From: Minisyncoccota bacterium
GTDB taxonomy: Bacteria; Patescibacteriota; Minisyncoccia; Phycocordibacterales; Phycocordibacteraceae
Length of the DNA stretch: 64,000 nt
Reading direction: 5' to 3'
NCBI GenBank assembly: GCA_017991635.1
Contig: JAGOQE010000001.1
Coordinates: forward strand, 131,965-195,964
Shown: positions 3,222-63,914 of the stretch, piece by piece
Layout of the letters: every line of letters starts with the position of its first letter
Position numbering within the stretch: position 1 is the stretch's first letter
Made by a program: the position numbers and the translations under genes
Notes under the pieces: generated by a model
What the model was told of the DNA's origin: nothing
Seen by the model: the letters and a program-made list of their open reading frames with translations, nothing else
The model's database searches: none

Positions 3222-4061
3222 GTGTGTTCTACAAATTACTCTAAAATGCAAAGTAAAAAATATTTACAGAATATGTTCTCTAACGGGTTGAAGCCAAAGA
3301 AATCATTGGGTCAAAACTTTTTAATGCACGCACAGACGGCGTCTCGTATTGTTCATGTTGCAGAAATTTCAAGTGAGACAACGGTACTAGAAATTGGTCC
3401 AGGGACAGGAATGCTTACTCGCGAACTTTTAAAGTCTGCCGGGAAAGTAATAGCTGTTGAGGCTGATTTTTCTCTACGCGAAAAACTTGAAGAAACTTTC
3501 GCTGAAGATATTACCTCTGAAAGACTTTCCCTTTTCTTTCAAGACATACGTTCATTTGATACGGAGACTCTCCCAAAAGAGTATGTCTTGGTCGCAAATA
3601 TTCCATATTACATAACTGGCGAAATTATTCGCATGTTTCTAACCGCTCCAAACCCACCCAAAAGCATGACTCTGCTCGTGCAGAAGGAGGTAGCTGTCCG
3701 TATTGCTCGAAGTGAAAAGGAGAGCCTGCTTTCACTTTCCGTAAAAATATTTGGAACTCCACACTATCGCTTTACCGTTCCTTCAGGTGCCTTTATTCCA
3801 CGCCCTAAGGTTGATTCAGCAGTACTGTCTATTACAGATATCAGCAATCCATTTGAAAATAGGGAAGAGGAAGCGCTCTTCTTTGAGCTTCTCCGTGCTG
3901 GATTTGCGCATAAGCGAAAAATGCTTCGTTCTAACCTGGAAAGCCTGTATAAACGAGAGCTGATTCTTGATGCATTTACTTCAGAAAATCTCTCACCGCA
4001 AGTTCGACCAGAGGAACTGAGTCTTTCAGATTGGGTGAAACTCTTTAAGAAACTTTCCTAG
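3222..4061 (+). CDS. rsmA: 16S rRNA (adenine1518/1519-N6)-dimethyltransferase RsmA/KsgA
   Basis: LGQNFL motif, SAM site VLEIGPGTGMLT, VIAVEAD, ANIPYYITGEII. Confidence 0.85.
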   Translation: MCSTNYSKMQSKKYLQNMFSNGLKPKKSLGQNFLMHAQTASRIVHVAEISSETTVLEIGPGTGMLTRELLKSAGKVIAVEADFSLREKLEETFAEDITSERLSLFFQDIRSFDTETLPKEYVLVANIPYYITGEIIRMFLTAPNPPKSMTLLVQKEVAVRIARSEKESLLSLSVKIFGTPHYRFTVPSGAFIPRPKVDSAVLSITDISNPFENREEEALFFELLRAGFAHKRKMLRSNLESLYKRELILDAFTSENLSPQVRPEELSLSDWVKLFKKLS

Positions 4062-4086
4062 GTTTTTACTGTGTGTATGAGAGTAG

Positions 4087-5121
4087 TTGCGCATTTTTGC
4101 GTGCTACTATCATCTATATATGATGGCTATTGTCCCTCCGTCTATGCGCTCTCTAAGTATTATTGGCTCAACGTTTCTTGCATTGGTGCTTATAGGAAGT
4201 GCGTATGTGCTTTCTGGTCCAAATCCCTTCAAACTTTTCACCGCAAATGCTGGGGGCACTGAAGAGCTCCTTACCTCACTCGCTAAGAAAGATGCGGACG
4301 GCGACGGCCTGCCTGACTGGCAAGAATCTCTTTACGGTACAGACCCGCAAAACCCAAACTCTGTGAAGGCCGGAATGACTGATCTTCAGGCAGTTTCAGA
4401 AGGTCTCGTGAAGCCTCGCTTTGAATCAGAGGTTACTGTTGGTGAGAGCACGGTACCCGGAACTACTGCAGGACCAAAAACTATTACTGACGAATTTGCT
4501 CGTGCACTCTTTGGCACCTATCTTAAGAACCGTGGTGCTACACAGCCCACCCCTGAAGAAATCGCCACCTTTACGCAAAACGCGGTGACGGCTCTTGCAG
4601 AACGTGAGGCAAAAATGACCGCGTACACCGAAAAAGACCTAGTAACAGGGACTTCTGGATATGAAGGTTTTAGAGCATATGCTTCTGGAGTAGATATCGC
4701 GATGGCTAAAAATGCCGTAAAGATTGAGAAGAGTAACATCGAGTATTTTGCAGATGGCGCAAATAAAGATGATGCAACAGCTCTCAAAAAGGTGAGCGAA
4801 ATTGCTGTTGGATACACCAACACTGCAAAAGCACTTACAAAGGTTGCAGTTCCGCCTGAGGGGAAGGCAGCTCACCTGCGCCTAGTAAACGCCCTTCACC
4901 GCATGGGCCTCGTGTCTGAACACCTTGCCTCTCTTCAAACCGACCCTCTTCGCGCAATGCTTGGTGTTGCTGAGCACGAAGACGCATCGCGTGAAATTGT
5001 CTCGGCAATGGCCGGTCTTAACAGCTTATTTGTTGCGCAAGGCATTTCTTTTGCGCCTGAAGAATCTGGCTACTATATAGTTCGCGCGGCTGATTCAGCC
5101 TCTAAGGTAGAGCTTCGATAA
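4087..5121 (+). CDS. Hypothetical membrane-anchored protein (first gene of T4SS-like operon); thrombospondin type-3-like Ca-binding motif
   Basis: N-terminal TM (IIGSTFLALVLIGSAYVL). DADGDGLPDWQE motif. Tightly packed with downstream + strand genes. Likely start at internal M near 4120. Confidence 0.4.
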   Translation: MRIFACYYHLYMMAIVPPSMRSLSIIGSTFLALVLIGSAYVLSGPNPFKLFTANAGGTEELLTSLAKKDADGDGLPDWQESLYGTDPQNPNSVKAGMTDLQAVSEGLVKPRFESEVTVGESTVPGTTAGPKTITDEFARALFGTYLKNRGATQPTPEEIATFTQNAVTALAEREAKMTAYTEKDLVTGTSGYEGFRAYASGVDIAMAKNAVKIEKSNIEYFADGANKDDATALKKVSEIAVGYTNTAKALTKVAVPPEGKAAHLRLVNALHRMGLVSEHLASLQTDPLRAMLGVAEHEDASREIVSAMAGLNSLFVAQGISFAPEESGYYIVRAADSASKVELR

Positions 5122-52893: not shown

Positions 52894-53724
52894 TTATACC
52901 CCCATTGGTGCCTTTATTGCAGGGTGCGACTCATACGCTTCAAGCTTGATGTCATTCATGGTGAATGAATCTATATCTTTCACTTCTGGATTCAACCAAA
53001 GTTTAGCGAGAGGAAGGGGAGTGCGTGCTAATTGCTCGTTTACAGCATCAACGTGGTCGTCACAAATGTGTGCGTCATTGAGGGTAAGGATGAGTTCTTT
53101 CGGTTTCTTACCAGTAACTTGAGCTACCATCGATAGCAAGAGCGCATATGAGGCAATGTTGAATGGAACGCCGAGGAACATATCAGCACTACGCTGGACC
53201 ATGTGAAGTGAGAGGTTGTCACCCGCAACAAAGAATTGAAATAGCATGTGACATGGAGGGAGTGCCATCTGGTCTAGTTCGCCTGGATTCCAGGCTGTCA
53301 CAATGAGACGACGATCAGCAGGGTCGTTCTTGATTTTATCAATCACACGAGCGATTTGGTCCACAACAAGTCCGTCGGGTCCTTGCCACTTCCTCCACTG
53401 CACGCCATATATGCGTCCGAGGTCGCCAGGAAACTTTGCCTTTGGAAGCCAGTAGTCAGCCTCTGAGTTCGCGGTCCAGATAGTCTTGTCTGTTCCGTTA
53501 AGTTCCTTCAGACGGTTGTTATCACTTGAGCCTTCAAGAAACCAAAGGAGCTCACTTTTGACCGCCTTGAAAGCAAGTTTCTTTGTAGTGAGGGCAGGGA
53601 AGCCATCGTTAAGATCGCAACGCAATTGAACGGCAAATAGTGCCCGAGTGCCACCGTATCGTCCTTGTCTGTGGTCACCATGTTCCATAATGTTTTTAAG
53701 GGCGTCGAGGTAGGCTTGTTCCAT
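52894..53724 (-). CDS. thyA: Thymidylate synthase (ThyA, folate-dependent)
   Basis: MEQAYLDALKNIMEHGDHRQ...YGVQWRKW..., ...PPCHMLFQFFV (catalytic Cys). ORF-track start 53829 is an upstream extension overlapping tmk. Confidence 0.9.
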   Translation of the reverse strand: MEQAYLDALKNIMEHGDHRQGRYGGTRALFAVQLRCDLNDGFPALTTKKLAFKAVKSELLWFLEGSSDNNRLKELNGTDKTIWTANSEADYWLPKAKFPGDLGRIYGVQWRKWQGPDGLVVDQIARVIDKIKNDPADRRLIVTAWNPGELDQMALPPCHMLFQFFVAGDNLSLHMVQRSADMFLGVPFNIASYALLLSMVAQVTGKKPKELILTLNDAHICDDHVDAVNEQLARTPLPLAKLWLNPEVKDIDSFTMNDIKLEAYESHPAIKAPMGV

Positions 53725-53813
53725 AAGGTGAAGTATACCAAGGGCTAAAATCTCCGTCCCCAGGTAGATTTTCGGCCTAAGGGCTAAGTGGGGTAGAGTC
53801 AGAAAGGAAATAC

Positions 53814-54467
53814 ATGGAGCAAAAAACAATGACAGGGCATAAAGGCGTGTTCATAACTCTTGATGGGGGTGAAGGTGTCGGGAAAACTCGACAAAAGAAC
53901 CTCCTTATGGAGAAACTGCCCGCATTATATCCGGGCAGAGAGTTTGTTTTCTCTCGTGAGCCGGGGGGAACTCCGTACGCAGAAGAAATTCGAAATGTCA
54001 TTTTTTCCGAGAGTGCCAGAACGGCTGACGGAAAAACCATGTTTGGACTTTTTACTGCTGCCCGCATGGATCACGTGCGCAATCTCATCAAACCTTCTCT
54101 TGATGCGGGTAAAGTTGTGGTGTGTGATCGTTTCATGGCAGCGACCTATGCGTACCAAGTCTACGCGATGGAAAATCCGGCAACTGTCGCCGCGTTTCAG
54201 GTGCACGTTGCGGAACTTGCTGTTCGTCCGGATCTCACGCTCATTCTCAATATGGATCCTGAAGAAGCACTGCTTCGAGTGAAGCGTCGCGCAGGTGAGA
54301 TCACCCATTTCGATGAGCGTGAACTTGTCTTCCATCAGGGGCTTTGCAAAGGTTACGGTGCCTACGCAAAACTCTTTCCTGATACGACTGCGCTTGTTGA
54401 TGCGAGCCGTTCTGTCGAAGAAGTGGAGGCGGATATACACGCCCACATTAAGAAACTTTTGGGTTAA
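53814..54467 (+). CDS. tmk: Thymidylate kinase
   Basis: P-loop VFITLDGGEGVGKT, ...SREPGGTPYAEEIR..., DRF/LID region. 217 aa. Confidence 0.85.
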   Translation: MEQKTMTGHKGVFITLDGGEGVGKTRQKNLLMEKLPALYPGREFVFSREPGGTPYAEEIRNVIFSESARTADGKTMFGLFTAARMDHVRNLIKPSLDAGKVVVCDRFMAATYAYQVYAMENPATVAAFQVHVAELAVRPDLTLILNMDPEEALLRVKRRAGEITHFDERELVFHQGLCKGYGAYAKLFPDTTALVDASRSVEEVEADIHAHIKKLLG

Positions 54468-54610
54468 TTACCCAAAAACCCCAAGCGTTCTACAGCTACG
54501 CTTGGGGTTTTTGTCATATGAGAGGGAAGCGGTACTATAGAGATACTAAGGTACTACCATGAGACGCTGACCAACATCGCCCCCTATTTTATTTCGTAAG
54601 CAATTTCTCC

Positions 54611-55870
54611 ATGTACGACCACATCAAAAAAGAAGACGACGCAGTATACAAAGCCATTGTTGGTGAAGACCATCGCCAGGTAGAAGGACTGGAACTCATT
54701 CCGTCAGAGAACTATGTTTCCATGGCTGTGCGTGAAGCAATGTCTTCAACACTCACGAACAAATACTCAGAAGGGTACCCGGGTAAGCGCTACTACGGAG
54801 GACAAGAGTTTACTGATCAGGTTGAACGTATCGCCATTGAACGAGCTAAAAAACTTTTTGGCGCGAGCTATGCAAACGTACAGCCTCTTGGGGGTGCGAA
54901 CGCGAACATTGCCATGTACATGGCCCTACTTGAACCAGGAGACACTATTTTGGGCATGGATCTTTCTCATGGTGGACACCTTACGCACGGTCACCCCGTG
55001 ACGTATCTTTCAAAAATCTTTCGCTTTATTCGATACAAGATGAAGGATGTTGAGACAGGTGAAATTGATTACGTCGCCCTTCGCGAAACAGCACTTACCG
55101 AAAAGCCAAAGATGATTCTTGCCGGATTCTCCGCATATCCCCGTGAACTTGAGTGGCAGAAAATTTCAGATATTGCAAAAGAGGTGGGCGCCTATGCTGT
55201 CGCTGACGTTGCGCACATTGCAGGCCTTATTGCAGGAGGTGCCCAAAAGAATCCATTTGACTATGGATTTGACGTTATGACGACAACGACACATAAAACA
55301 CTTCGTGGGCCACGAGGAGGAATGATTTTGACTCGTGAGAGTGAAGACATCGCAAAGAAGATTGATAAGTCAGTCTTCCCAGGTCTTCAAGGTGGACCGC
55401 ATATGCACCAAATTGCAGCTAAGGCGATTTCATTTAACGAAGCCCTACATCCTTCCTTTAGTACGTATGCATACCAGGTAGTAAAAAATGCGAGCGCTAT
55501 GGCACGTGTTTTTAAGGAGAGTGGCGCGCGCATGATTACAGGAGGTACGTCAAATCACCTCATTCTTCTTGATGCAGAGACCTCATTTGGACTTTCTGGC
55601 GGGGAAGCAGAGACGCTTCTGGATAGAGCAGGCATGACCCTCAACAAGAACTCAATCCCAGACGACACGCGCAAGCCACTTGATCCTTCAGGTATTCGCT
55701 TCGGCACGCCTGCGATGACGACTCGTGGACTAGGAGAAGAAGAGTCACAGGATATTGCGCACCTAATGGTAGAAGTACTGACTCAAAAAGATGACGTAAC
55801 GGTTGAGAGCGCTCGTCTTCGTGTCGTCGAGATAGCAACCTCGCATCCTGTACCTGAGTCGTTTATATAA
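54611..55870 (+). CDS. glyA: Serine hydroxymethyltransferase
   Basis: IPSENYVSMAVREAMSS..., PLP-lysine region TTTTHKTLRGPRGGMIL. 419 aa. Confidence 0.9.
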   Translation: MYDHIKKEDDAVYKAIVGEDHRQVEGLELIPSENYVSMAVREAMSSTLTNKYSEGYPGKRYYGGQEFTDQVERIAIERAKKLFGASYANVQPLGGANANIAMYMALLEPGDTILGMDLSHGGHLTHGHPVTYLSKIFRFIRYKMKDVETGEIDYVALRETALTEKPKMILAGFSAYPRELEWQKISDIAKEVGAYAVADVAHIAGLIAGGAQKNPFDYGFDVMTTTTHKTLRGPRGGMILTRESEDIAKKIDKSVFPGLQGGPHMHQIAAKAISFNEALHPSFSTYAYQVVKNASAMARVFKESGARMITGGTSNHLILLDAETSFGLSGGEAETLLDRAGMTLNKNSIPDDTRKPLDPSGIRFGTPAMTTRGLGEEESQDIAHLMVEVLTQKDDVTVESARLRVVEIATSHPVPESFI

Positions 55871-55897
55871 GGCCTCGCCTCTGCTATAGTCGGAGGT

Positions 55898-57583
55898 ATG
55901 GAAGAGCGCATTAGAAGCGTTATACAGGAGACACTCACTTCGCTTACCGCGGAGCCTATCTCTTTTGTCGTTGAGTGGCCTGCAGAGCTTTCTCATGGTG
56001 ACATCTCTACCAATGTCGCCTTGGCTTCCGCTAAAGCAATCGGTAAATCACCTCGTGATATTGCTGAGTTAATGCGAGAGGCACTCACAACATCGCTTCG
56101 AGATGATGTGAGTGATATCTCTGTTGCGGGTCCTGGTTTCGTAAACATACGACTCTCAAAGAAGACGATTGATACAGAGGTCGCTCAAGCACGTATACAG
56201 CCAAGCGAGTGGGGCAAGGGAAGTGCACGGAGAGGACAAAAAATAATCTTTGAATATTCTTGCCCAAATCCGTTTAAGGAAATGCATATCGGGCATCTTA
56301 TGAGTACGGTGATTGGTGAAGCAAGCAGTCGACTTATTGAATCCCAAGGCGCACACGTTATCCGTGATTCATATGGGGGTGATGTTGGTCCACATGTGGC
56401 CAAGGCGCTGTGGGCAATACGTAAAAAGGGAGAGGGGATGCCTTCTTCAGCTCGAGAAGTTGGCGAAGCGTACGCATTTGGTTCTCGTCAGTACGACGAG
56501 CATGAAGATGCGAAAGCGGAGATTGATGCGCTCAATACAAAACTCTATGAAGTTGTAGGTAAGGCAGAGGGTGAGCGAGACGAAGAAGAGCGCGAGCTCT
56601 TTACCTTGTGGCGAGAGGGACGGGATTTATCTTTTGATTCTCACAAGGCTGTGTGGAGCGCACTTGGTACACACTTTGACTACCTCATTCACGAAAGCGA
56701 GACCACACCTATTGGTATGGAGGTGGTTAAGGACGCTCTGTCCAAGGGTGTGTTCGAAGAAAGTCAGGGTGCAGTAATTTATTCGGGGGAAAAGAAGGGA
56801 CTCCACACTCTTGTATTTATTACGAGTAGAGGGACACCTACCTATGAGACCAAGGACGTTGGGCTCGCCTTTCTTAAAGAGGAACGTCTCGCCCCATTTG
56901 ATTTCTCATACATCATGACGGCTAATGAGCAGTCAGGGCACTTTGCCGTGTTTCTTGGGGCTCTCGAAGATATTGCACCCATGCTCGCCAAGAAGACCTC
57001 ACACGTGCCGCATGGTTTTCTCCGACTTACTGAAGGGAAGATGGGTTCACGCACAGGAAATGTAATTACGGCAGTCAGTCTACTTGAGGACATTGAGGTA
57101 AAAGCAAGTGAAAAAAACGAAGACCCACTTATCGCGCACCAGGTCGCAGTTGGTGCGGTGAAGTACATGATTCTTCGTTCTGCTCCCGGAAGCGACATCA
57201 TTTTTGACCCAGAGAAATCGCTTTCTCTTGAGGGTGACTCAGGTCCCTACCTTCAATACGCGCTCGTGCGTGCCCGCTCAATCATTAAGGATAAAGACAT
57301 CTCAACAGAGGCACCATCTGAAGGGCCTAGAGAAGCGTTCACGCTCGCCCGTCTCATCCGCCGTTTCCCTAGAGTTGTTGAGGAAGCTGAAAGCAATCTT
57401 GCTCCGCACACGCTCACGCATTACCTCACCGAACTTGCCTCAGAATGGAATTCATTTTATGCACAAGAGAGAATTATTGGAGGAGAGCACGAGGCATACA
57501 AGCTTTGGCTTGCGAGTTCATTTGTACACACACTTGAAAACGGACTGACACTCCTTGGAATTCCTGCTCCAGAGAAGATGTAG
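55898..57583 (+). CDS. argS: Arginyl-tRNA synthetase
   Basis: Class I HIGH (PNPFKEMHIGHLMSTVIGE), catalytic core, C-terminal DALR anticodon-binding domain. 561 aa. Confidence 0.85.
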   Translation: MEERIRSVIQETLTSLTAEPISFVVEWPAELSHGDISTNVALASAKAIGKSPRDIAELMREALTTSLRDDVSDISVAGPGFVNIRLSKKTIDTEVAQARIQPSEWGKGSARRGQKIIFEYSCPNPFKEMHIGHLMSTVIGEASSRLIESQGAHVIRDSYGGDVGPHVAKALWAIRKKGEGMPSSAREVGEAYAFGSRQYDEHEDAKAEIDALNTKLYEVVGKAEGERDEEERELFTLWREGRDLSFDSHKAVWSALGTHFDYLIHESETTPIGMEVVKDALSKGVFEESQGAVIYSGEKKGLHTLVFITSRGTPTYETKDVGLAFLKEERLAPFDFSYIMTANEQSGHFAVFLGALEDIAPMLAKKTSHVPHGFLRLTEGKMGSRTGNVITAVSLLEDIEVKASEKNEDPLIAHQVAVGAVKYMILRSAPGSDIIFDPEKSLSLEGDSGPYLQYALVRARSIIKDKDISTEAPSEGPREAFTLARLIRRFPRVVEEAESNLAPHTLTHYLTELASEWNSFYAQERIIGGEHEAYKLWLASSFVHTLENGLTLLGIPAPEKM

Positions 57584-57669
57584 ATAACGTCTTGCGCATC
57601 TCAGTCAATAGCGCTAAGGTACCAAACGACTCTCTATTCGGGGGAGTTTGAATCTTTCGGGAGGAAAGC

Positions 57670-57903
57670 TTGAAAAAGCGTAAGTCTGGTTGGAAGAAAC
57701 ATCGGGACGCCGTCGTCCACGCGTGCCACGAGTTCGGCATGCGACCGAAACAACTGTTCTGCCTGGCCTACAGTGCCTGGCGCAGGAAGTTCGACGGGAG
57801 GGTGGTCTCCCATGCTTTCAACACCTGGCTGAAGAAGCAGCGTGTCCCGTACTGGGTTCGCGACTTCATCCGGATGCGCCGCCGTGAGCTGGCGTTCGCC
57901 TAA
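57670..57903 (+). CDS. Small basic protein encoded in a high-GC (about 62%), high-GC3 island; probable foreign-derived gene or gene fragment (TTG start; internal ATG possible)
   Basis: From about 57700 the frame shows about 85% G/C at codon third positions (GAC GCC GTC GTC CAC GCG TGC CAC GAG TTC GGC ...), unlike every other gene in the window. Ends TAA at 57901-57903, followed by a strong terminator. Confidence 0.45.
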   Translation: MKKRKSGWKKHRDAVVHACHEFGMRPKQLFCLAYSAWRRKFDGRVVSHAFNTWLKKQRVPYWVRDFIRMRRRELAFA

Positions 57904-57920
57904 GTACTAGGCGACTTACG

Positions 57921-57966
57921 AATTCAGCCGGGAGAAGAATTTCTTCTCCCGGCTGTTTCCTTTTTT
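57921..57966 (+). terminator. Intrinsic terminator after GC-rich ORF, upstream of ileS
   Basis: AGCCGGGAGAAGAATTTCTTCTCCCGGCT + TTTCCTTTTTTAT. Confidence 0.75.
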
Positions 57967-57994
57967 ATCCAGTAAACGCTAGGATAGGACTATT

Positions 57995-60900
57995 ATGGAA
58001 GGCAAAGAACCATCAGAGGTCGAGCGTAGTGAAGAGGCAATACTCTCATTTTGGGAAGCGCACGACATATTTCACAAGACTCTCGCCAAGCCTTCACCAA
58101 AGGGAACCTTTGTGTTTTATGAAGGACCTCCAACAGCAAACGGTCGCCCTGGAGTGCATCACCTTGAATCACGTTCATTTAAAGATGCGGTTCCACGTTA
58201 CAAGACGATGCGGGGATACCATGTGCCTCGCCGCGCAGGCTGGGATACACACGGATTGCCGGTCGAGCTTGAAGTAGAGAAGGAGCTCGGCTTCAAGGGA
58301 AAAAAGGATATCGAAGTTTACGGTGTCGCCGAATTTAATAAGAAGTGCCGAGAGAGTGTGATGAAGTACATACATGAGTGGGAAAAGTTTTCTCGTCGTA
58401 TGGCGTATGGTGTGGATCAAGAAAAGGCGTACTTCACCTTCAACGCTCCCTTCATGGAGACTGCGTGGTGGGTCCTGAAGCAAACCGCAGAGCAGGGAAG
58501 ACTCTACAAGGACTACAAGGTGGTGCCATGGTGCGCACGATGCGGTACCGGACTTTCTTCCCATGAACTTGCTCAAGGATATGCTGATGTTAAAGACCTT
58601 TCTATCACAGCGAAGTTTGAGTTAGTCGATGAACCCGGAACCTTCGTTCTTGCCTGGACTACCACACCATGGACCCTGCCCGGAAACGTTGCGCTTGCCG
58701 TGGGGAAGGATATTGCATACGGGCTCTATGAAAAAGACGGCGAAAAGGTAATCGTGGCCGTTGCTCGCGCAGAGAAGGTTCTACCCGACTGGTCTCTTTT
58801 GAAAGAGATGCAGGGACACGAACTTATTGGGAAGACGTACAAACCGCTTTATCCATTTGCTAAAGATATTGCAAAGGGTGAGGAGCTTACGAAATTTGAA
58901 AAGGCATACCAGATTTATCATGCAGATTTTGTAACGACTGAAGATGGTACGGGGGTCGTTCACACTGCCGTTATGTATGGTCAGGATGACTTTGTTCTCG
59001 GCTCGTCCCTTGGTTTGCCCAAGGTGCATCTCGTTGGGGCTGATGGCCGATTCGTTCCTGGTACTGATTTTCTTGAAGGTAGGTTTGTAAAAGAGGAAGA
59101 TGAAAACGGAAAGCCAACGCTTGCCGTTGATATTGTGGATGATTTAACTCGTCGCGGACTTTTCTTTGCGAAGGAGAATTACGCTCACTCGTATCCGTTT
59201 TGTTGGCGTTGTAAAACTCCACTTATCTACTACGCGCGCGATTCATGGTACGTCCGCATGCAAGATTTGCAGGATGCGATGGTTGCTGAGAATAAACGGG
59301 TTAATTGGGAGCCTTCTCATATCAAAGACGGTCGTATGGGCGAGTGGCTTAAGGGCGCAAAAGACTGGGCAATTTCTCGCGAACGGTATTGGGGTACACC
59401 ACTTCCTGTGTGGGAGAGCATTGATGGGGAAGAGCGTGTGGTGATTGGTTCTATCGAGGAGCTTAAAAGTAAGGTCAAGAAAAGTGGCAACACCTACATC
59501 ATGATGCGTCATGGTGAGGCAACTCATAACCTAGAAAAGCGACTCGACTCTTCACTCGCAGGCTCTCATCTTACTGAGAAGGGAAGGCAAGAGGTACTTG
59601 CACGTATCCCTGAACTTAAGGCTAAGAAGATTTCTCGAGTATATGTATCGCCCCTTGCGCGTGCGAGGGAGACCGCAGACTTACTTACAAAGGAGCTTGG
59701 CCTTGCCGAAGAAGTCATAATCGTTGATGAGAGACTTCGCGAATTTACCTTTGGTGAGTTAGAAGGAAAGACAAGTGCTGATTTTGCAGAAGTTCGTGAG
59801 AATCTTCCGTACGATGGTGTCATTACTGAAGGAGAGAGTTATCAGGACGCAAAGAACCGTTTCGGAGATTTTCTCTATGAGGTAGAGCGCACACATAAGA
59901 ACGAAACAATACTTATAGTCACGCACGGTATTGGTTTTGAAGCGTTGGGTGCGGTAGCACAAGCTTCAGACAAAGAGACTTCAAAGAAGCTCATCAATGA
60001 ACTATTTGCACGACCAGCCGAAGTGCGTGCTCTTAACTTCATCCCACTTCCACACAACGAAGACTTTGAGCTTGATTTGCATCGTCCTTACATAGACGAG
60101 ATTGTCTTGATTGGTGCGGGCGGACAAGAACTTACACGCGTGAAAGATGTTATGGACGTGTGGTTTGATTCGGGTGTCGTGCCGTTTGCACAAGACCACT
60201 ATCCGTTTGAAAACAAGAAAGCGTTTGATAAGCAGGCATATCCAGCAGACTATATTTCAGAAGCAATAGACCAGACGAGAGGTTGGTTTTACACCTTGAT
60301 GGCTGTTGGCACACTCTTGAAGCGCGGACGACCATATAAGAATGTAATTTGTCTCGGGCACCTTCTTGATGGGGAGGGACAGAAAATGAGTAAGTCAAAG
60401 GGAAACATTATTAATCCGTGGGAGGCAATGGATGAGTGGGGTGCCGACACGCTTCGCTTGTGGATGTATAGCGTAAATCAGCCGGGAGATTCAAAGAGCT
60501 TTTCAGAAAAGACCGTAAAGGAAACTGCACGTAGTTTGTCTTGGTTTGAGAACAGCCTCAAGTTCTATGAACTCTTTAAAGATGTGCCTCATACCGGGGG
60601 AACGCTCCAGGCAGTAGATGTGTGGATGTCAGCGCGTACCAGACAGACCGTCTGTCGTATGACTGAATACATGGACGACTACAAACTCTATGACGCCACA
60701 CGAGAGCTGCAGGGATATTTTGAGGACGTATCTCAATGGTATGTGCGCCGTATACGCGACCGTGCACGAGCGGGGGATAGGGCAGCGCTCCAGACATTGC
60801 GTCACGTACTTCATACAGGGGCTCGATTGCTCGCGCCGTTTTCACCATTCTTGGCTGAGCGCGTGTATCAAGTAGTGAAGTATCACCATGACCCTGAGAG

Positions 60901-61456
60901 CGTTCACTTAAGCGAGTGGCCAGAGCACTTCTCATCAATCTTGAGTCGCTTGCTTGGAGACGATGCTAAGGACAAAAACGTTATTGCCTCAATGGCGCGT
61001 GTGCGTGCTATTGCTTCACAAGGGCTCATGGAGCGCCAAAAGGTAGGCATAAAGGTACGTCAGCCTCTTGAACGACTTACGGTTTCTGGAGTGCCGCTGG
61101 CTCAGGCATATGTCGCACTCATTCGCGAAGAAGTGAATGTCGAAGAGGTGGAATTTGATGAGAAGCTCGAGGAAGGTACCATCATTCTCGACAGCACACT
61201 CACGCCCGCTTTGATTAAGAAAGGTGACGTGCGTGAATTTCTTCGAGCACTCGCTGATGCGCGAAAGCAGATGGAGCTTGAGCCAACAGACATGGTGTTG
61301 GTGTCTGTAGATGGAACACTGGAGGCACTACTCCTTGGAGAGGAGATACCTGGTGTAGAGCGTCTTTCATCACAAGAGGTGCGCGGCACACATACAGTAC
61401 TGTTATCAACGGGAGAGGCGACATTTAGTGTCTCTGTACGTACACATGCGACATAA
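57995..61456 (+). CDS. ileS: Isoleucyl-tRNA synthetase carrying an inserted histidine-phosphatase (phosphoglycerate-mutase-like) domain
   Basis: HIGH region PPTANGRPGVHHL, editing-domain signature TTPWTLPGN, WAISRERYWGTPLPVW, KMSKS (GQKMSKSKGN). Between PVW and DLHRPYID lies about 180 aa with RHG-phosphatase motifs (MMRHGEATHN; SPLARARETA; ILIVTHGIG). Confidence 0.85.
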   Translation: MEGKEPSEVERSEEAILSFWEAHDIFHKTLAKPSPKGTFVFYEGPPTANGRPGVHHLESRSFKDAVPRYKTMRGYHVPRRAGWDTHGLPVELEVEKELGFKGKKDIEVYGVAEFNKKCRESVMKYIHEWEKFSRRMAYGVDQEKAYFTFNAPFMETAWWVLKQTAEQGRLYKDYKVVPWCARCGTGLSSHELAQGYADVKDLSITAKFELVDEPGTFVLAWTTTPWTLPGNVALAVGKDIAYGLYEKDGEKVIVAVARAEKVLPDWSLLKEMQGHELIGKTYKPLYPFAKDIAKGEELTKFEKAYQIYHADFVTTEDGTGVVHTAVMYGQDDFVLGSSLGLPKVHLVGADGRFVPGTDFLEGRFVKEEDENGKPTLAVDIVDDLTRRGLFFAKENYAHSYPFCWRCKTPLIYYARDSWYVRMQDLQDAMVAENKRVNWEPSHIKDGRMGEWLKGAKDWAISRERYWGTPLPVWESIDGEERVVIGSIEELKSKVKKSGNTYIMMRHGEATHNLEKRLDSSLAGSHLTEKGRQEVLARIPELKAKKISRVYVSPLARARETADLLTKELGLAEEVIIVDERLREFTFGELEGKTSADFAEVRENLPYDGVITEGESYQDAKNRFGDFLYEVERTHKNETILIVTHGIGFEALGAVAQASDKETSKKLINELFARPAEVRALNFIPLPHNEDFELDLHRPYIDEIVLIGAGGQELTRVKDVMDVWFDSGVVPFAQDHYPFENKKAFDKQAYPADYISEAIDQTRGWFYTLMAVGTLLKRGRPYKNVICLGHLLDGEGQKMSKSKGNIINPWEAMDEWGADTLRLWMYSVNQPGDSKSFSEKTVKETARSLSWFENSLKFYELFKDVPHTGGTLQAVDVWMSARTRQTVCRMTEYMDDYKLYDATRELQGYFEDVSQWYVRRIRDRARAGDRAALQTLRHVLHTGARLLAPFSPFLAERVYQVVKYHHDPESVHLSEWPEHFSSILSRLLGDDAKDKNVIASMARVRAIASQGLMERQKVGIKVRQPLERLTVSGVPLAQAYVALIREEVNVEEVEFDEKLEEGTIILDSTLTPALIKKGDVREFLRALADARKQMELEPTDMVLVSVDGTLEALLLGEEIPGVERLSSQEVRGTHTVLLSTGEATFSVSVRTHAT

Positions 61457-62012
61457 GTATCAAACGCTCGGTGTTATCTTGTCGCGCAAAGATCATGGAG
61501 AGGCAAATGTCCTAGTTAGTATTTTGACGCCTGAGCTCGGGCTTGTGCGTGCACGGGTGCAGGGTGTTAGAAAATCCGGAGCCAAATTAGCCACAGGAAT
61601 TACCACGCTTGCTATTTCGTCGTGTACGCTCGTGCGCGGGAAAGAAGGGTGGCGCCTTGTAGGTGCTCTTAATGAGCGAAACGATGTAAGAGCACTTTCT
61701 TTTGAAGGTCGAGAAGTCCTCGGGAGAGTGGCATTTTTGATTGATCGCTTGGTTAAGGGTGAGTCACGCGATGCTCGATTGTTTACGGTTTTCTATACGC
61801 TTCTCAATACGTTGTGTGCGTACACTGGAAGCGAATACGAGCCGTACGAGTACCTTGCGGTCCTCTATATTCTTTCACTTCAAGGTGTTGAAGGTGGGGA
61901 AGGGCTTGGAAATACCTACGCGTTTACTGAAGATGATTTGAAATATGTCAGGGAGCACTCAAGGGAGGTGATTTCCCGGATAAATACTGGTATACACGCC
62001 TCGGGTCTCTAA
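61428..62012 (+). CDS. DNA repair protein RecO-like (short)
   Basis: N-terminal OB-fold pattern (YQTLGVILSRKDHGEANVLVSILTPELGLVRARVQGVRKSGAKL) then helical domain. 194 aa, shorter than canonical RecO. Confidence 0.45.
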   Translation: MSLYVHMRHKYQTLGVILSRKDHGEANVLVSILTPELGLVRARVQGVRKSGAKLATGITTLAISSCTLVRGKEGWRLVGALNERNDVRALSFEGREVLGRVAFLIDRLVKGESRDARLFTVFYTLLNTLCAYTGSEYEPYEYLAVLYILSLQGVEGGEGLGNTYAFTEDDLKYVREHSREVISRINTGIHASGL

Positions 62013-62033
62013 CTGCGCGGTATACTAAAACGC

Positions 62034-63914
62034 ATGCAAGAACCTGAAGATAGTCCACTTAAGGATCTCCAAGACAAGCTATACAGCACCACTCCGACGC
62101 CCCGAATGAGTGCTCCCGAGCTTCCTCGCACGCATGTCGTCCACGAAGACACGACATGGGCTCCCGAAGCGCCCGTGCCTCACAAACAACGGATGTCTCT
62201 TGCAACGTGGTTTCTTATTGGCGCCGTCGCTTTTTTTGTAGTTGCGCTTGGAACGGCACTCGGTTTTTTATATTTTGGAACACGTACGGTATCAGTTGAA
62301 AATGTTGACGTGTACGTGACCGCGTCCTCACCATCAATAGCGAGCGGTGACACGATGGAGCTCACCATCACTGTCGAAAATAGAAATCCAGCAAGTATTT
62401 CAGATACTACTCTTAAGGTAGATTTTCCAGAAGGCACACGCTCATCAGAAGGGGATGGCGAACCATTTCCACGATATACCGATACGTTAGGTACTGTGCC
62501 TCCAGGTGAAAAAGTAACTCGTACGGTCCGTGCTGTTATCTCTGGTGAGGCAAATACAAAAGTGGAACTGCCAGTTACATTCACCTACAAAACAGAAGGC
62601 TCAAATGCGGAATTTGAGGTACAGGAGACAGAAGTGATTACTATAACGAGCTCTCCAGTCTCAGTCTCAGTGAGTGCTCTTTCAGAAACGGCCTCAGGGC
62701 AACCTCTTTCATTCTCTATTCGTGTTCGTGCAAATGGCACAGAAGCCGTACCAAACGTTTCCTTGGTCGCTGAGTATCCTTTCGGATTTTCGTTAACGGA
62801 GGCAAACCCAAAACCTTCGACAGGTAACTTGTTTGTTCTCGGCACAATTAATCCAGGTGAGACTAAAACAATCACACTCTCTGGAACACTCACTGGCCAG
62901 CAGGGAGATGAGCGGGTGTTTAAATTTAGTGCGGGGACACAGGCAGGAACTACGCAGGCATTAGGTGTGAAGTACACCACTCAAGAGACTCGACTTCGGG
63001 TTACAAGACCATTCCTTTCAGTTGGTCTTTCTCTAAACCGCGACGAGAACGATCCTGTGATAATTCGTTCAGGAGCTTCAATTGACGGTGTCGTCTCGTG
63101 GACAAACACACTTGCGACGTCTATTACTGACGGCGTTGTCTCTATTGCGCTTTCAGGTGAAGGCTTAGATGCCTCTCAGGTGCGAAGCGGTAGCGGATAT
63201 TACCGTTCTTCAGACAGAACGATTGTATTCAATCGAGACACCTCATCCTCTCTCCAACTCCTTGGGCCTCAAGACACAGGAAATGGCTCGTTCTCAATTG
63301 GTACTAAAAAAGGCACTGCGCTTGAAGCGCTTCGTAATCCAACAGTAAACCTTACCGTGTCAGTTTCAGGAAAGCGTATTGGTGAATCGGGCGTGCTTGA
63401 AAACGTGTCTTCGACACTTACCAAGACCGTCAAAATTGCGACCGACCTCTCCGTGTCTACTCGAGCTGTTCGTTCGGTAGGCCCATTCACTAACTCAGGC
63501 GCATGGCCTTTGAAGGTCGACCAGGCAACGACCTTTACCATCATGATGACTGCCAAAAATACTGTGAACCCTGTTGCAGGCGCTAAGACAGTCATGGTCC
63601 TTCCTCAGAACGTAACGTTTACTGGAAGCGTAAGTCCAAGTGATGGTAGCTTGGTATACAATGCGTCAACCCGAGAAGTGACGTGGACGGTAGGGGACAT
63701 GGGTGCAGGAAGCCAAAAGCAGATGAACTTCCAGGTCTCGCTCTTGCCAAGCCTTTCTGAAAAGGGTACAAGTCCTCTACTTGTTGGCGAGCAAAGCATT
63801 ACGGGAACTGATAGATTTATAGAGGCTCAAGTCAAAATGATTAACCCAGGCGTCACCACAAGAATTGACTCTGATCCTTCGTATGTTTCCTCGTACAGCG
63901 TAGTTTCCCAATAA
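62034..63914 (+). CDS. Large membrane-anchored surface protein with repeated DUF11/CARDB-like beta-sandwich domains
   Basis: Cytoplasmic N-tail, one TM (LATWFLIGAVAFFVVALGTALGFLYF), then at least 4 repeats of pattern ...G(D/E)T..LT(I/L)T(V/L).N.G... Confidence 0.45.
   Translation: MQEPEDSPLKDLQDKLYSTTPTPRMSAPELPRTHVVHEDTTWAPEAPVPHKQRMSLATWFLIGAVAFFVVALGTALGFLYFGTRTVSVENVDVYVTASSPSIASGDTMELTITVENRNPASISDTTLKVDFPEGTRSSEGDGEPFPRYTDTLGTVPPGEKVTRTVRAVISGEANTKVELPVTFTYKTEGSNAEFEVQETEVITITSSPVSVSVSALSETASGQPLSFSIRVRANGTEAVPNVSLVAEYPFGFSLTEANPKPSTGNLFVLGTINPGETKTITLSGTLTGQQGDERVFKFSAGTQAGTTQALGVKYTTQETRLRVTRPFLSVGLSLNRDENDPVIIRSGASIDGVVSWTNTLATSITDGVVSIALSGEGLDASQVRSGSGYYRSSDRTIVFNRDTSSSLQLLGPQDTGNGSFSIGTKKGTALEALRNPTVNLTVSVSGKRIGESGVLENVSSTLTKTVKIATDLSVSTRAVRSVGPFTNSGAWPLKVDQATTFTIMMTAKNTVNPVAGAKTVMVLPQNVTFTGSVSPSDGSLVYNASTREVTWTVGDMGAGSQKQMNFQVSLLPSLSEKGTSPLLVGEQSITGTDRFIEAQVKMINPGVTTRIDSDPSYVSSYSVVSQ

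Follow-up and report, generated by a model that had tools for sequence, protein, structure and literature searches.

A histidine-phosphatase domain nested within the isoleucyl-tRNA synthetase of Parcubacteria-group bacteria

Aminoacyl-tRNA synthetases are among the best-studied enzymes, and the additions that they carry are mostly terminal and non-catalytic. The ileS gene in a 64,000-nucleotide stretch of DNA from an uncultivated, Parcubacteria-type Minisyncoccota bacterium (GenBank assembly GCA_017991635.1, contig JAGOQE010000001.1, positions 131,965 to 195,964 of the forward strand; this whole stretch is referred to as the window) has a different organisation. Here a complete and unrelated enzyme, apparently active, sits within the catalytic region of isoleucyl-tRNA synthetase (IleRS), which is essential, and the arrangement has been kept across much of the CPR (Candidate Phyla Radiation). 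The locus raises the question of what a phosphatase is doing inside IleRS: does it serve the synthetase, or is it carried by it?

A phosphatase domain inside the ileS reading frame

The ileS gene is a single open reading frame, uninterrupted by any stop or frameshift, and a scan of its product with the Pfam family His_Phos_1 (PF00300) recovered a match of 109.3 bits (gathering threshold 21.7; E 2.5e-31). The excised segment alone matched at E 8.2e-33. An initial reading of the sequence (the first-pass annotation) had proposed the in-frame acquisition of a whole histidine-phosphatase domain, and this proposal is upheld together with the catalytic signature on which it was based: IMMRHGEATHN (aa 502-512; aa, amino acids), VSPLARARETA (aa 551-561) and ILIVTHGIGFE (aa 639-649) are all present. 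Its boundaries needed correction. The start at 59497 lies one base out of frame and yields 17 stops, the in-frame segment being 59498-60040 (aa 502-682), and the length, given as about 180 aa, is 194 aa (aa 493-686) when measured against the IleRS2 structure 8C8W from Priestia megaterium. The gene, the insert and the predicted active-site residues are as follows; conservation is given first for 59 close full-length homologues and then for 91 domain copies drawn from representatives of 50%-identity clusters, in which the host IleRS falls to 37% identity with the window protein.

57995..61456, + strand: ileS, type-2 IleRS with nested His_Phos_1 domain, 1153 aa plus stop
59471..60052, + strand: insert, the whole histidine-phosphatase domain with short linkers, aa 493-686, 194 aa (8C8W alignment)
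59498..59959, + strand: Pfam His_Phos_1 (PF00300) match, aa 502-655, E 2.5e-31
59507..59515, + strand: R505-H506-G507, the RHG motif, with H506 the predicted phospho-accepting histidine (R and H 59/59; R 89/91, H 90/91)
59660..59662, + strand: R556, predicted second phosphate-binding arginine, SPLxR motif (59/59; 89/91)
59741..59743, + strand: E583, predicted general acid/base (58 E and 1 D of 59; 88 E and 2 D of 91)
59924..59929, + strand: H644-G645, with H644 the predicted second catalytic histidine (H 59/59; 90/91)

Residues R505, H506, R556, H644 and G645 are invariant among the close homologues, and the set R505, H506, R556, E583 and H644 is retained entire in 58 of the 59, the remaining protein carrying E583D. 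This constancy is found in a domain whose mean identity across the same proteins is only about 45%, as against 72% for the N-terminal part of IleRS. Among the more distant copies, the R-H-R-E-H set is whole in 85 of 91. Such a pattern is the one expected from a working active site, and judged by its residues the insert is apparently complete and enzymatically active. The divergence of the insert correlates weakly with that of the IleRS core (r 0.15, a value reached in 1 of 999 permutations), which is consistent with co-divergence and carries little information at such depth.

The insert is predicted to be a discrete folding unit, a point that the first-pass annotation had left to structural modelling. 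When it was modelled alone with AlphaFold2 (AF2) from a 24-sequence alignment, the predicted local distance difference test score (pLDDT) was 95.4 and the predicted template-modelling score (pTM) 0.91. A Foldseek search of the PDB aligned 188-195 columns, that is the whole insert, to 4IJ6, 6S2Q and 1EBB with template-modelling (TM) scores of 0.79-0.82 and root-mean-square deviations of 2.0-2.8 Å. The proteins matched by fold were PspA (4IJ5/4IJ6, with 4IJ6 at TM 0.82), GpgP (6S2Q/4PZ9) and PhoE/YhfR (1EBB/1H2E), with a further match to HFP of the riboflavin pathway (9MMH). By sequence, the nearest solved protein is the broad-specificity phosphatase PhoE (E 1.5e-16).

More specific identities were tried against NCBIfam equivalog models and rejected, the insert scoring well under every cut-off: CobC (TIGR03162, 78 against 163), PspA (NF045917, 59 against 350) and 2,3-bisphosphoglycerate-dependent phosphoglycerate mutase (NF038349, the archaeal form, 77 against 225; TIGR01258, 29 against 82; PRK14115, 29 against 305). 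By these scores the insert is a generic branch-1 histidine phosphatase without recognisable mutase, CobC or PspA identity. A consistent basic charge is absent from the domain, which has an isoelectric point of 6.0 in the window protein and a median net charge of -2 across the family.

The position of the insert can be defined closely. With its linkers (KVKKSGN ... FIPLP), it stands in for about 3 residues, chain 476-480 of 8C8W, and it measures 194-201 aa in all 59 full-length homologues. In P. megaterium IleRS2 (PmIleRS2) the HUP core comprises residues 40-168 and 513-632, between which lie connective peptide 1 (CP1), the editing domain and connective peptide 2 (CP2) (PMC10485003). The insertion point thus falls within CP2, shortly ahead of the second half of the core. 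A junction alignment with insert-free relatives (P0125, P0133, P0137, P0163 and P0210), which have a CxxC...CxC zinc knuckle here, places it between the two cysteine pairs of the knuckle. The stretches that flank the insert in the window are 59414-59470 and 60098-60154. All four zinc-ligand cysteines are gone from the window protein and from all 120 homologues among the matches listed in the protein search. The idea that the insert replaces the knuckle was rejected, since both cysteine pairs are retained in 33 of 75 insert-bearing cluster representatives; loss of the ligands does not track presence of the insert, which therefore cannot be seen as a plain replacement for zinc. In the linkers, K495, G498 and N499 show strong conservation.

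Outside the insert, the protein is recognisably IleRS. It matches the NCBIfam ileS model TIGR00392 with 818.5 bits (cut-off 621.4), and the match is broken at about profile position 503/508 into one stretch on each side of the insert. Pfam likewise finds tRNA-synt_1 (PF00133) at aa 16-500 and in further stretches, on both sides of the insert, together with Anticodon_1 (PF08264) and DUF5915 (PF19302). The features of the host enzyme are these:

57995..59470, + strand: N-terminal part of IleRS, aa 1-492 (aa 11-492 align to 8C8W 12-476)
58151..58162, + strand: GVHH, the 'HIGH' site, aa 53-56 (motif reading)
58661..58687, + strand: TTPWTLPGN, threonine-rich motif of the editing domain, aa 223-231 (invariant in the 59 homologues)
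59366..59413, + strand: WAISRERYWGTPLPVW, IleRS motif directly 5' of the insertion, aa 458-473 (motif reading)
60053..61453, + strand: C-terminal part of IleRS, aa 687-1153 (aa 687-1090 align to 8C8W 480-890)
60383-60397, + strand: KMSKS, aa 797-801, in the second half of the HUP core, after DVWFDSG

The N-terminal part comprises the first HUP/Rossmann half, CP1 with the editing domain (including a second editing motif, GTGVVH, at aa 318-323) and CP2 as far as the first half of what was once the zinc knuckle. The C-terminal part holds the remainder of CP2 with the DLHRPYID hairpin (aa 694-701), the second HUP half, and the anticodon-binding and C-terminal domains. The flanking IleRS motifs had all been called intact. 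This is correct for WAISRERYWGTPLPVW, DLHRPYID, TTPWTLPGN and KMSKS, but the class I 'HIGH' signature is a natural, non-canonical GVHH; all 59 aligned homologues keep H56, and at least 90% of them keep H55. GVHH is a recognised IleRS2 variant of HXGH (PMC10485003), and the [A/G]XHH variant is tied to mupirocin hyper-resistance in IleRS2 (PMC10485003; bioRxiv 10.64898/2026.02.03.703510).

Its C-terminal organisation (Anticodon_1 plus DUF5915) is that of type 2, as opposed to the zinc-binding C-terminus of IleRS1. The best matches by both sequence and fold are the IleRS2 structures 8C8W, 1ILE and yeast 8WND, with the IleRS1 structures 1FFY and 8C9E ranking behind. In a full-length AF2 model (pLDDT 87.4, pTM 0.78) the residues of the insert score 89-97. 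With GVHH, KMSKS and the editing motifs conserved, and a model that fits IleRS2 structures, the IleRS part looks functional.

Distribution, extra copies and free-standing relatives

A 99%-identical protein is encoded on an independent contig beside the same neighbour genes, and hundreds of homologues share the nested architecture. PF00300 is present in all 120 homologues among the matches listed in the protein search, whose source labels include Parcubacteria group, Paceibacterota, Pacebacteria and Patescibacteria group. An exhaustive search of 50%-identity cluster representatives found the domain at the same site in 88 of the best 150 IleRS and its absence from 62, so that the insertion is not universal among orthologues.

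Contigs of species-representative genomes were then scanned with a degenerate DNA pattern spanning the IleRS motif and the RHG motif, which matched at least 120 contigs. In 116 of 120 pattern loci, tblastn placed the N-terminal part of IleRS, the insert and the C-terminal part contiguously on one strand. Two loci missed by tblastn (L047 and L075) also carry the domain, as read by direct translation, and the last two, which lack an insert, are chance matches in archaea. The insertion, which could have been taken for a peculiarity of a single genome, is thus shared by at least 118 species genomes. Nearly all of the named taxa belong to the NCBI Parcubacteria group, among them Nomura-, Yanofsky-, Jorgensen-, Giovannoni-, Zambryski-, Lipton-, Colwell-, Falkow- and Magasanik-bacteria, Sungiibacteriota and Paceibacteria, with one Peregrinibacteria label.

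A few of the taxon labels are doubtful. Three loci labelled Gammaproteobacteria or Spirochaetia (L010, L020 and L021) carry a Parcubacteria-type IleRS with the insert (N-flank identity 48-64%), and these contigs of metagenome-assembled genomes are probably mis-binned or mislabelled. Many third-party annotation (TPA) assemblies tagged 'uncultured Candidatus Saccharibacteria' appear equally doubtful.

Insert-bearing and insert-free IleRS are interleaved over core identities from 0.54 to 0.37 with the window protein. P0125, a protein of 995 aa without the insert, is the third-closest of 133 cluster representatives, and its locus shows the same thyA-glyA-argS-ileS-recO synteny as the window; P0133 and P0137 are comparable cases. 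IleRS evidently works without the insert. On a crude neighbour-joining tree, parsimony required 23 or more gains or losses of the insert; the tree, which has no bootstrap support, is taken solely as a sign of patchiness. Taken together, these data show the insert to be widespread and old among the IleRS of the Parcubacteria group, though patchy in its occurrence. At one insert-free relative (L123), an IS200-type Y1 transposase gene lies between ileS and recO (3899-4447).

The same domain family also occupies other positions in IleRS, either alongside the CP2 copy or in its place:

P0216, aa 538-698 and 756-940: second copy on the second knuckle hairpin, at its tip
P0211, aa 495-653 and 868-1053: second copy after the KMSKS region and before the anticodon-binding domain
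L033, ~2629-1837, - strand: second copy, after the HYPFEN loop
P0160, aa 733-899: only the site before the anticodon-binding domain is occupied

These extra copies keep the catalytic residues, as seen in the alignment of the P-series proteins and, for L033, by direct reading of the sequence. Pairwise scores did not resolve the origin of the copies at other sites, and a word-indexed search with the P0160 domain gave no matches. A further protein, P0248 (1395 aa), has besides the phosphatase a domain that resembles P-loop kinases and occupies the HYPFEN loop (aa 737-869). This domain matches AAA_18, AAA_33 and Zeta_toxin weakly, with scores that do not exceed the Pfam cut-offs, and it has distant matches to APS kinase, shikimate kinase and Pnkp1.

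A word search with the insert alone also identified complete free-standing homologues of 192-203 aa (P0278, P0279 and P0280), the termini of which correspond to the boundaries of the insert. They begin with KKLRNSYFMLRHG, compared with KKSGNxYFxMRHG in the embedded copies, the shared pattern being KK..N.YF.(M/L)RHG. They keep the same catalytic residues and score 138 bits against a hidden Markov model of the embedded copies, as against 76-104 for generic PhoE-like proteins. Two other candidates, P0275 and P0276, were discarded as fragments of IleRS. The free-standing genes are located as follows:

L127, 630-1241: P0278 gene, between the 3' end of argS and recO
L131, 292-873: P0279 gene, between argS and recO
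L128: free-standing phosphatase homologue, between argS and recO
L132, 527-1105: P0280 gene, directly upstream of recO, preceded by a small membrane protein instead of argS

On L127, the longest of these contigs, recO is followed by a homologue of the 626-aa protein that lies downstream of recO in the window. The slot between argS and recO can therefore hold ileS with the phosphatase (the window), ileS alone (L122) or the phosphatase alone (L127 and L131). No free-standing histidine-phosphatase copy adjoining ileS was found in ~0.94 Mb from 126 loci, and capture of a neighbouring gene into ileS is consequently unsupported in the sampled loci; the 64-kb window holds no other histidine phosphatase. 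The free-standing form looks more like the relic of a lost ileS than like the donor of the insert. Whichever direction evolution took, the phosphatase is retained on its own.

The surrounding gene order, thyA - tmk - glyA (serine hydroxymethyltransferase) - argS - ileS - recO - 626-aa protein (window ~52894-63914), is conserved and common to relatives, including L001 and L122. The 626-aa protein gives faint CLIPPER matches, and L122 has dcd/dUTPase, folA and a CYTH gene upstream. The neighbourhood looks like a thymidylate and one-carbon cluster beside two aminoacyl-tRNA synthetase genes. The spacer of ~410 nucleotides between argS and ileS (57584-57994) contains no T-box or other Rfam element at gathering thresholds and holds only short unsupported open reading frames.

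What the phosphatase may do

To one interpretation we give slightly better than even credence: that a housekeeping IleRS carries the domain as a self-contained phosphatase. One polypeptide would then hold two enzymes, a type-2 IleRS and a PhoE/CobC/PspA-like phosphatase looped out of CP2, the latter most likely a self-contained phosphomonoesterase. The terminal phosphate of its substrate would be held by R505, R556 and N512. E583 would act as the acid, with help from H644, as the phosphoryl group passes to H506, and the phospho-histidine would then be hydrolysed. A small phosphorylated metabolite or a nucleotide is the most likely substrate. Catalysis would probably not depend on aminoacylation, and IleRS would act mainly as a constitutively expressed carrier in reduced genomes. 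That the phosphatase is autonomous, rather than one that serves IleRS, is suggested by the insert-free IleRS in the same synteny and by the free-standing homologue at the position of ileS.

Several points weigh against this interpretation. The same domain family is found at no fewer than three further IleRS sites (P0216, P0211/P0160 and L033), which would be surprising were IleRS merely a passive carrier and which is a hint of genuine functional linkage; more than any other finding, such recurrence speaks for an association with IleRS beyond chance. CP2 presumably lies near the route of the tRNA 3' end between the synthetic and editing sites, making action in cis geometrically conceivable. The free-standing gene may be what a lost ileS left behind, or it may be the ancestral source of the insert. 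Finally, with scores so far under the equivalog cut-offs, none of the specific substrates of PhoE, PspA, GpgP or CobC can be assigned to the domain.

The strongest alternative, which we regard as possible but doubtful, is action of the phosphatase in cis with IleRS, the substrate being an RNA or a nucleotide. The domain could strip a 2'- or 3'-phosphate from the 3' ends of damaged tRNA(Ile), healing them for charging, or hydrolyse a nucleotide product beside the synthetic site. Action in cis would account for an insertion in CP2 of the catalytic region, for the use of at least four IleRS sites by one domain family and for the strong conservation of linker residues K495, G498 and N499. The kinase-like domain in the neighbouring loop of P0248 also fits, as kinase plus phosphatase is a pairing found in RNA end-healing enzymes, although the weakness of the kinase-like matches tells against giving this much weight. 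Action in cis is harder to reconcile with the many close relatives whose IleRS is insert-free and with a free-standing version that exists without IleRS. Moreover, the nearest characterised relatives are all small-molecule enzymes, and the lack of a consistent basic surface charge argues weakly against an RNA substrate. That functional coupling of this kind drove repeated recruitment, through removal of blocking 2'/3'-phosphates from the acceptor end of IleRS-bound tRNA or through action at the synthetic site on a nucleotide or an inhibitor, we consider unlikely. A phosphatase so coupled may, in some lineages, be paired with the embedded kinase-like domain.

A mainly structural or regulatory role is likewise an unlikely explanation. 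Here the domain would scaffold CP2 in place of the lost knuckle, mediate dimerisation or sense a phosphometabolite and so tune charging, with hydrolysis secondary. Many members of the histidine-phosphatase family are dimers, and lineages with two copies could pair them within one molecule; the window protein and the 120 listed homologues, which are without any of the four flanking zinc ligands, would suit a scaffold. However, the insert-bearing representatives that keep both cysteine pairs have no lost knuckle to replace. The near-invariance of the nucleophile histidine and the acid Glu/Asp over deep divergence is also predicted by catalysis, whereas folding or ligand binding need not produce it, and the free-standing homologue keeps the same residues.

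Self-protection is improbable. Here the domain would break down a natural, phosphorylated IleRS inhibitor, for example an aminoacyl-adenylate mimic bearing a phosphate or phosphoramidate. The link of GVHH with mupirocin hyper-resistance does suggest selection by IleRS inhibitors, and NF040702, with its GNAT acetyltransferase domain, is a case in which IleRS has taken in another domain that modifies small molecules, and could be an analogue. Histidine phosphatases, however, move terminal phosphoryl groups. Mupirocin has no phosphate, the aminoacyl-adenylate is a substituted phosphate and no monoester, known adenylate mimics bear substituted phosphate or sulfamoyl groups, and we know of no phosphorylated IleRS inhibitor of the required type. 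Adenylate hydrolysis and mupirocin detoxification, both raised in the first-pass annotation, are therefore chemically unlikely for a fold that transfers terminal phosphoryl groups, and neither the patchy presence of the domain nor its free-standing form requires self-protection. An artefact, whether a chimeric assembly or two adjacent genes joined through a sequencing error, is ruled out for practical purposes by the uninterrupted frame, by the 99%-identical protein on an independent contig with the same neighbours and the same architecture in independent assemblies, and by the 118 of 120 pattern loci in which IleRS sequence runs on contiguously at both sides of the insert.

If the phosphatase is indeed independent of its carrier, it offers a clear natural case of reduced genomes packing enzymes through domain nesting, and the zinc-knuckle loop of IleRS CP2 would be one that tolerates insertions of ~200 residues, which would be useful for engineering. 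If it is coupled to IleRS, it would represent a novel class of aminoacyl-tRNA synthetase in which phosphoryl transfer is an integral activity, and would tie phosphate chemistry in a new way to the charging or quality control of tRNA in minimal-genome organisms. The proteins concerned are annotated only as IleRS, and the phosphatase is for this reason missing from metabolic reconstructions of the CPR. The insert is also a handy lineage marker.

Comparison with known systems

The nested phosphatase of IleRS is real, widespread and undescribed in the literature that we found. The first-pass annotation knew of no aminoacyl-tRNA synthetase with an embedded domain of the phosphoglycerate-mutase family, and full-text searches agree: they returned no description of an IleRS or other aminoacyl-tRNA synthetase with a histidine-phosphatase or phosphoglycerate-mutase domain, including in CPR, Patescibacteria or Parcubacteria. 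A 2026 preprint on the evolution of IleRS domains (bioRxiv 10.64898/2026.02.03.703510) does not mention the phosphatase insert, a fold search of the PDB found no solved IleRS that contains such a domain, and NCBIfam has a model for a GNAT-bearing IleRS and none for the IleRS-phosphatase architecture. In public records the proteins are named 'isoleucyl-tRNA synthetase' or 'class I tRNA ligase family protein', with the domain annotated at the level of Pfam.

For the host enzyme, the closest known systems are the IleRS2 of P. megaterium (8C8U/V/W) and the IleRS of Thermus thermophilus (1ILE), with full-length homology outside the insert of 716 and 689 bits, respectively. IleRS2 structures have the same fold as the window model (TMt 0.81-0.88; 8C8W 0.81) and share with it the type-2 C-terminal domains and intact editing motifs. 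The natural GVHH of the window protein corresponds to the engineered hyper-resistant variant of PmIleRS2. The two enzymes differ in CP2, where the window protein has a 194-aa enzyme domain in place of ~3 loop residues, and in the CxxC...CxC zinc ligands, which flank this loop in PmIleRS2 and many relatives but are absent from the window protein.

For the insert, the closest systems are PhoE/YhfR, PspA, GpgP (Rv2419c) and CobC, which share its fold over the full length (TM 0.75-0.82). As branch-1 phosphatases they have the same RHG...R...E...H(G) set and a similar size of ~190-200 aa, and PhoE of Geobacillus stearothermophilus (1EBB, 1H2E) is 29-31% identical to the insert. PhoE, PspA, GpgP and CobC are free-standing, in contrast to the insert, which is nested in another enzyme.

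A precedent for the combination is provided by NF040702 (ileS_w_GNAT), an IleRS subclass with an unrelated small-molecule-modifying domain, on which the literature search found no paper. The domain family differs; the window protein lacks a GNAT Pfam match and reaches only 293 bits against this model (cut-off 1999), through shared IleRS regions alone. Histidine-phosphatase modules also form one half of other bifunctional proteins, namely the RNase H/acid phosphatase of the Rv2228c type (NF005567), whose model matches the insert at 70 bits, and 6-phosphofructo-2-kinase/fructose-2,6-bisphosphatase (PFKFB), structures of which were recovered by both sequence and fold searches with the insert. In these two systems the partners are joined end-to-end, whereas the insert described here lies nested within the catalytic region of its aminoacyl-tRNA synthetase partner.

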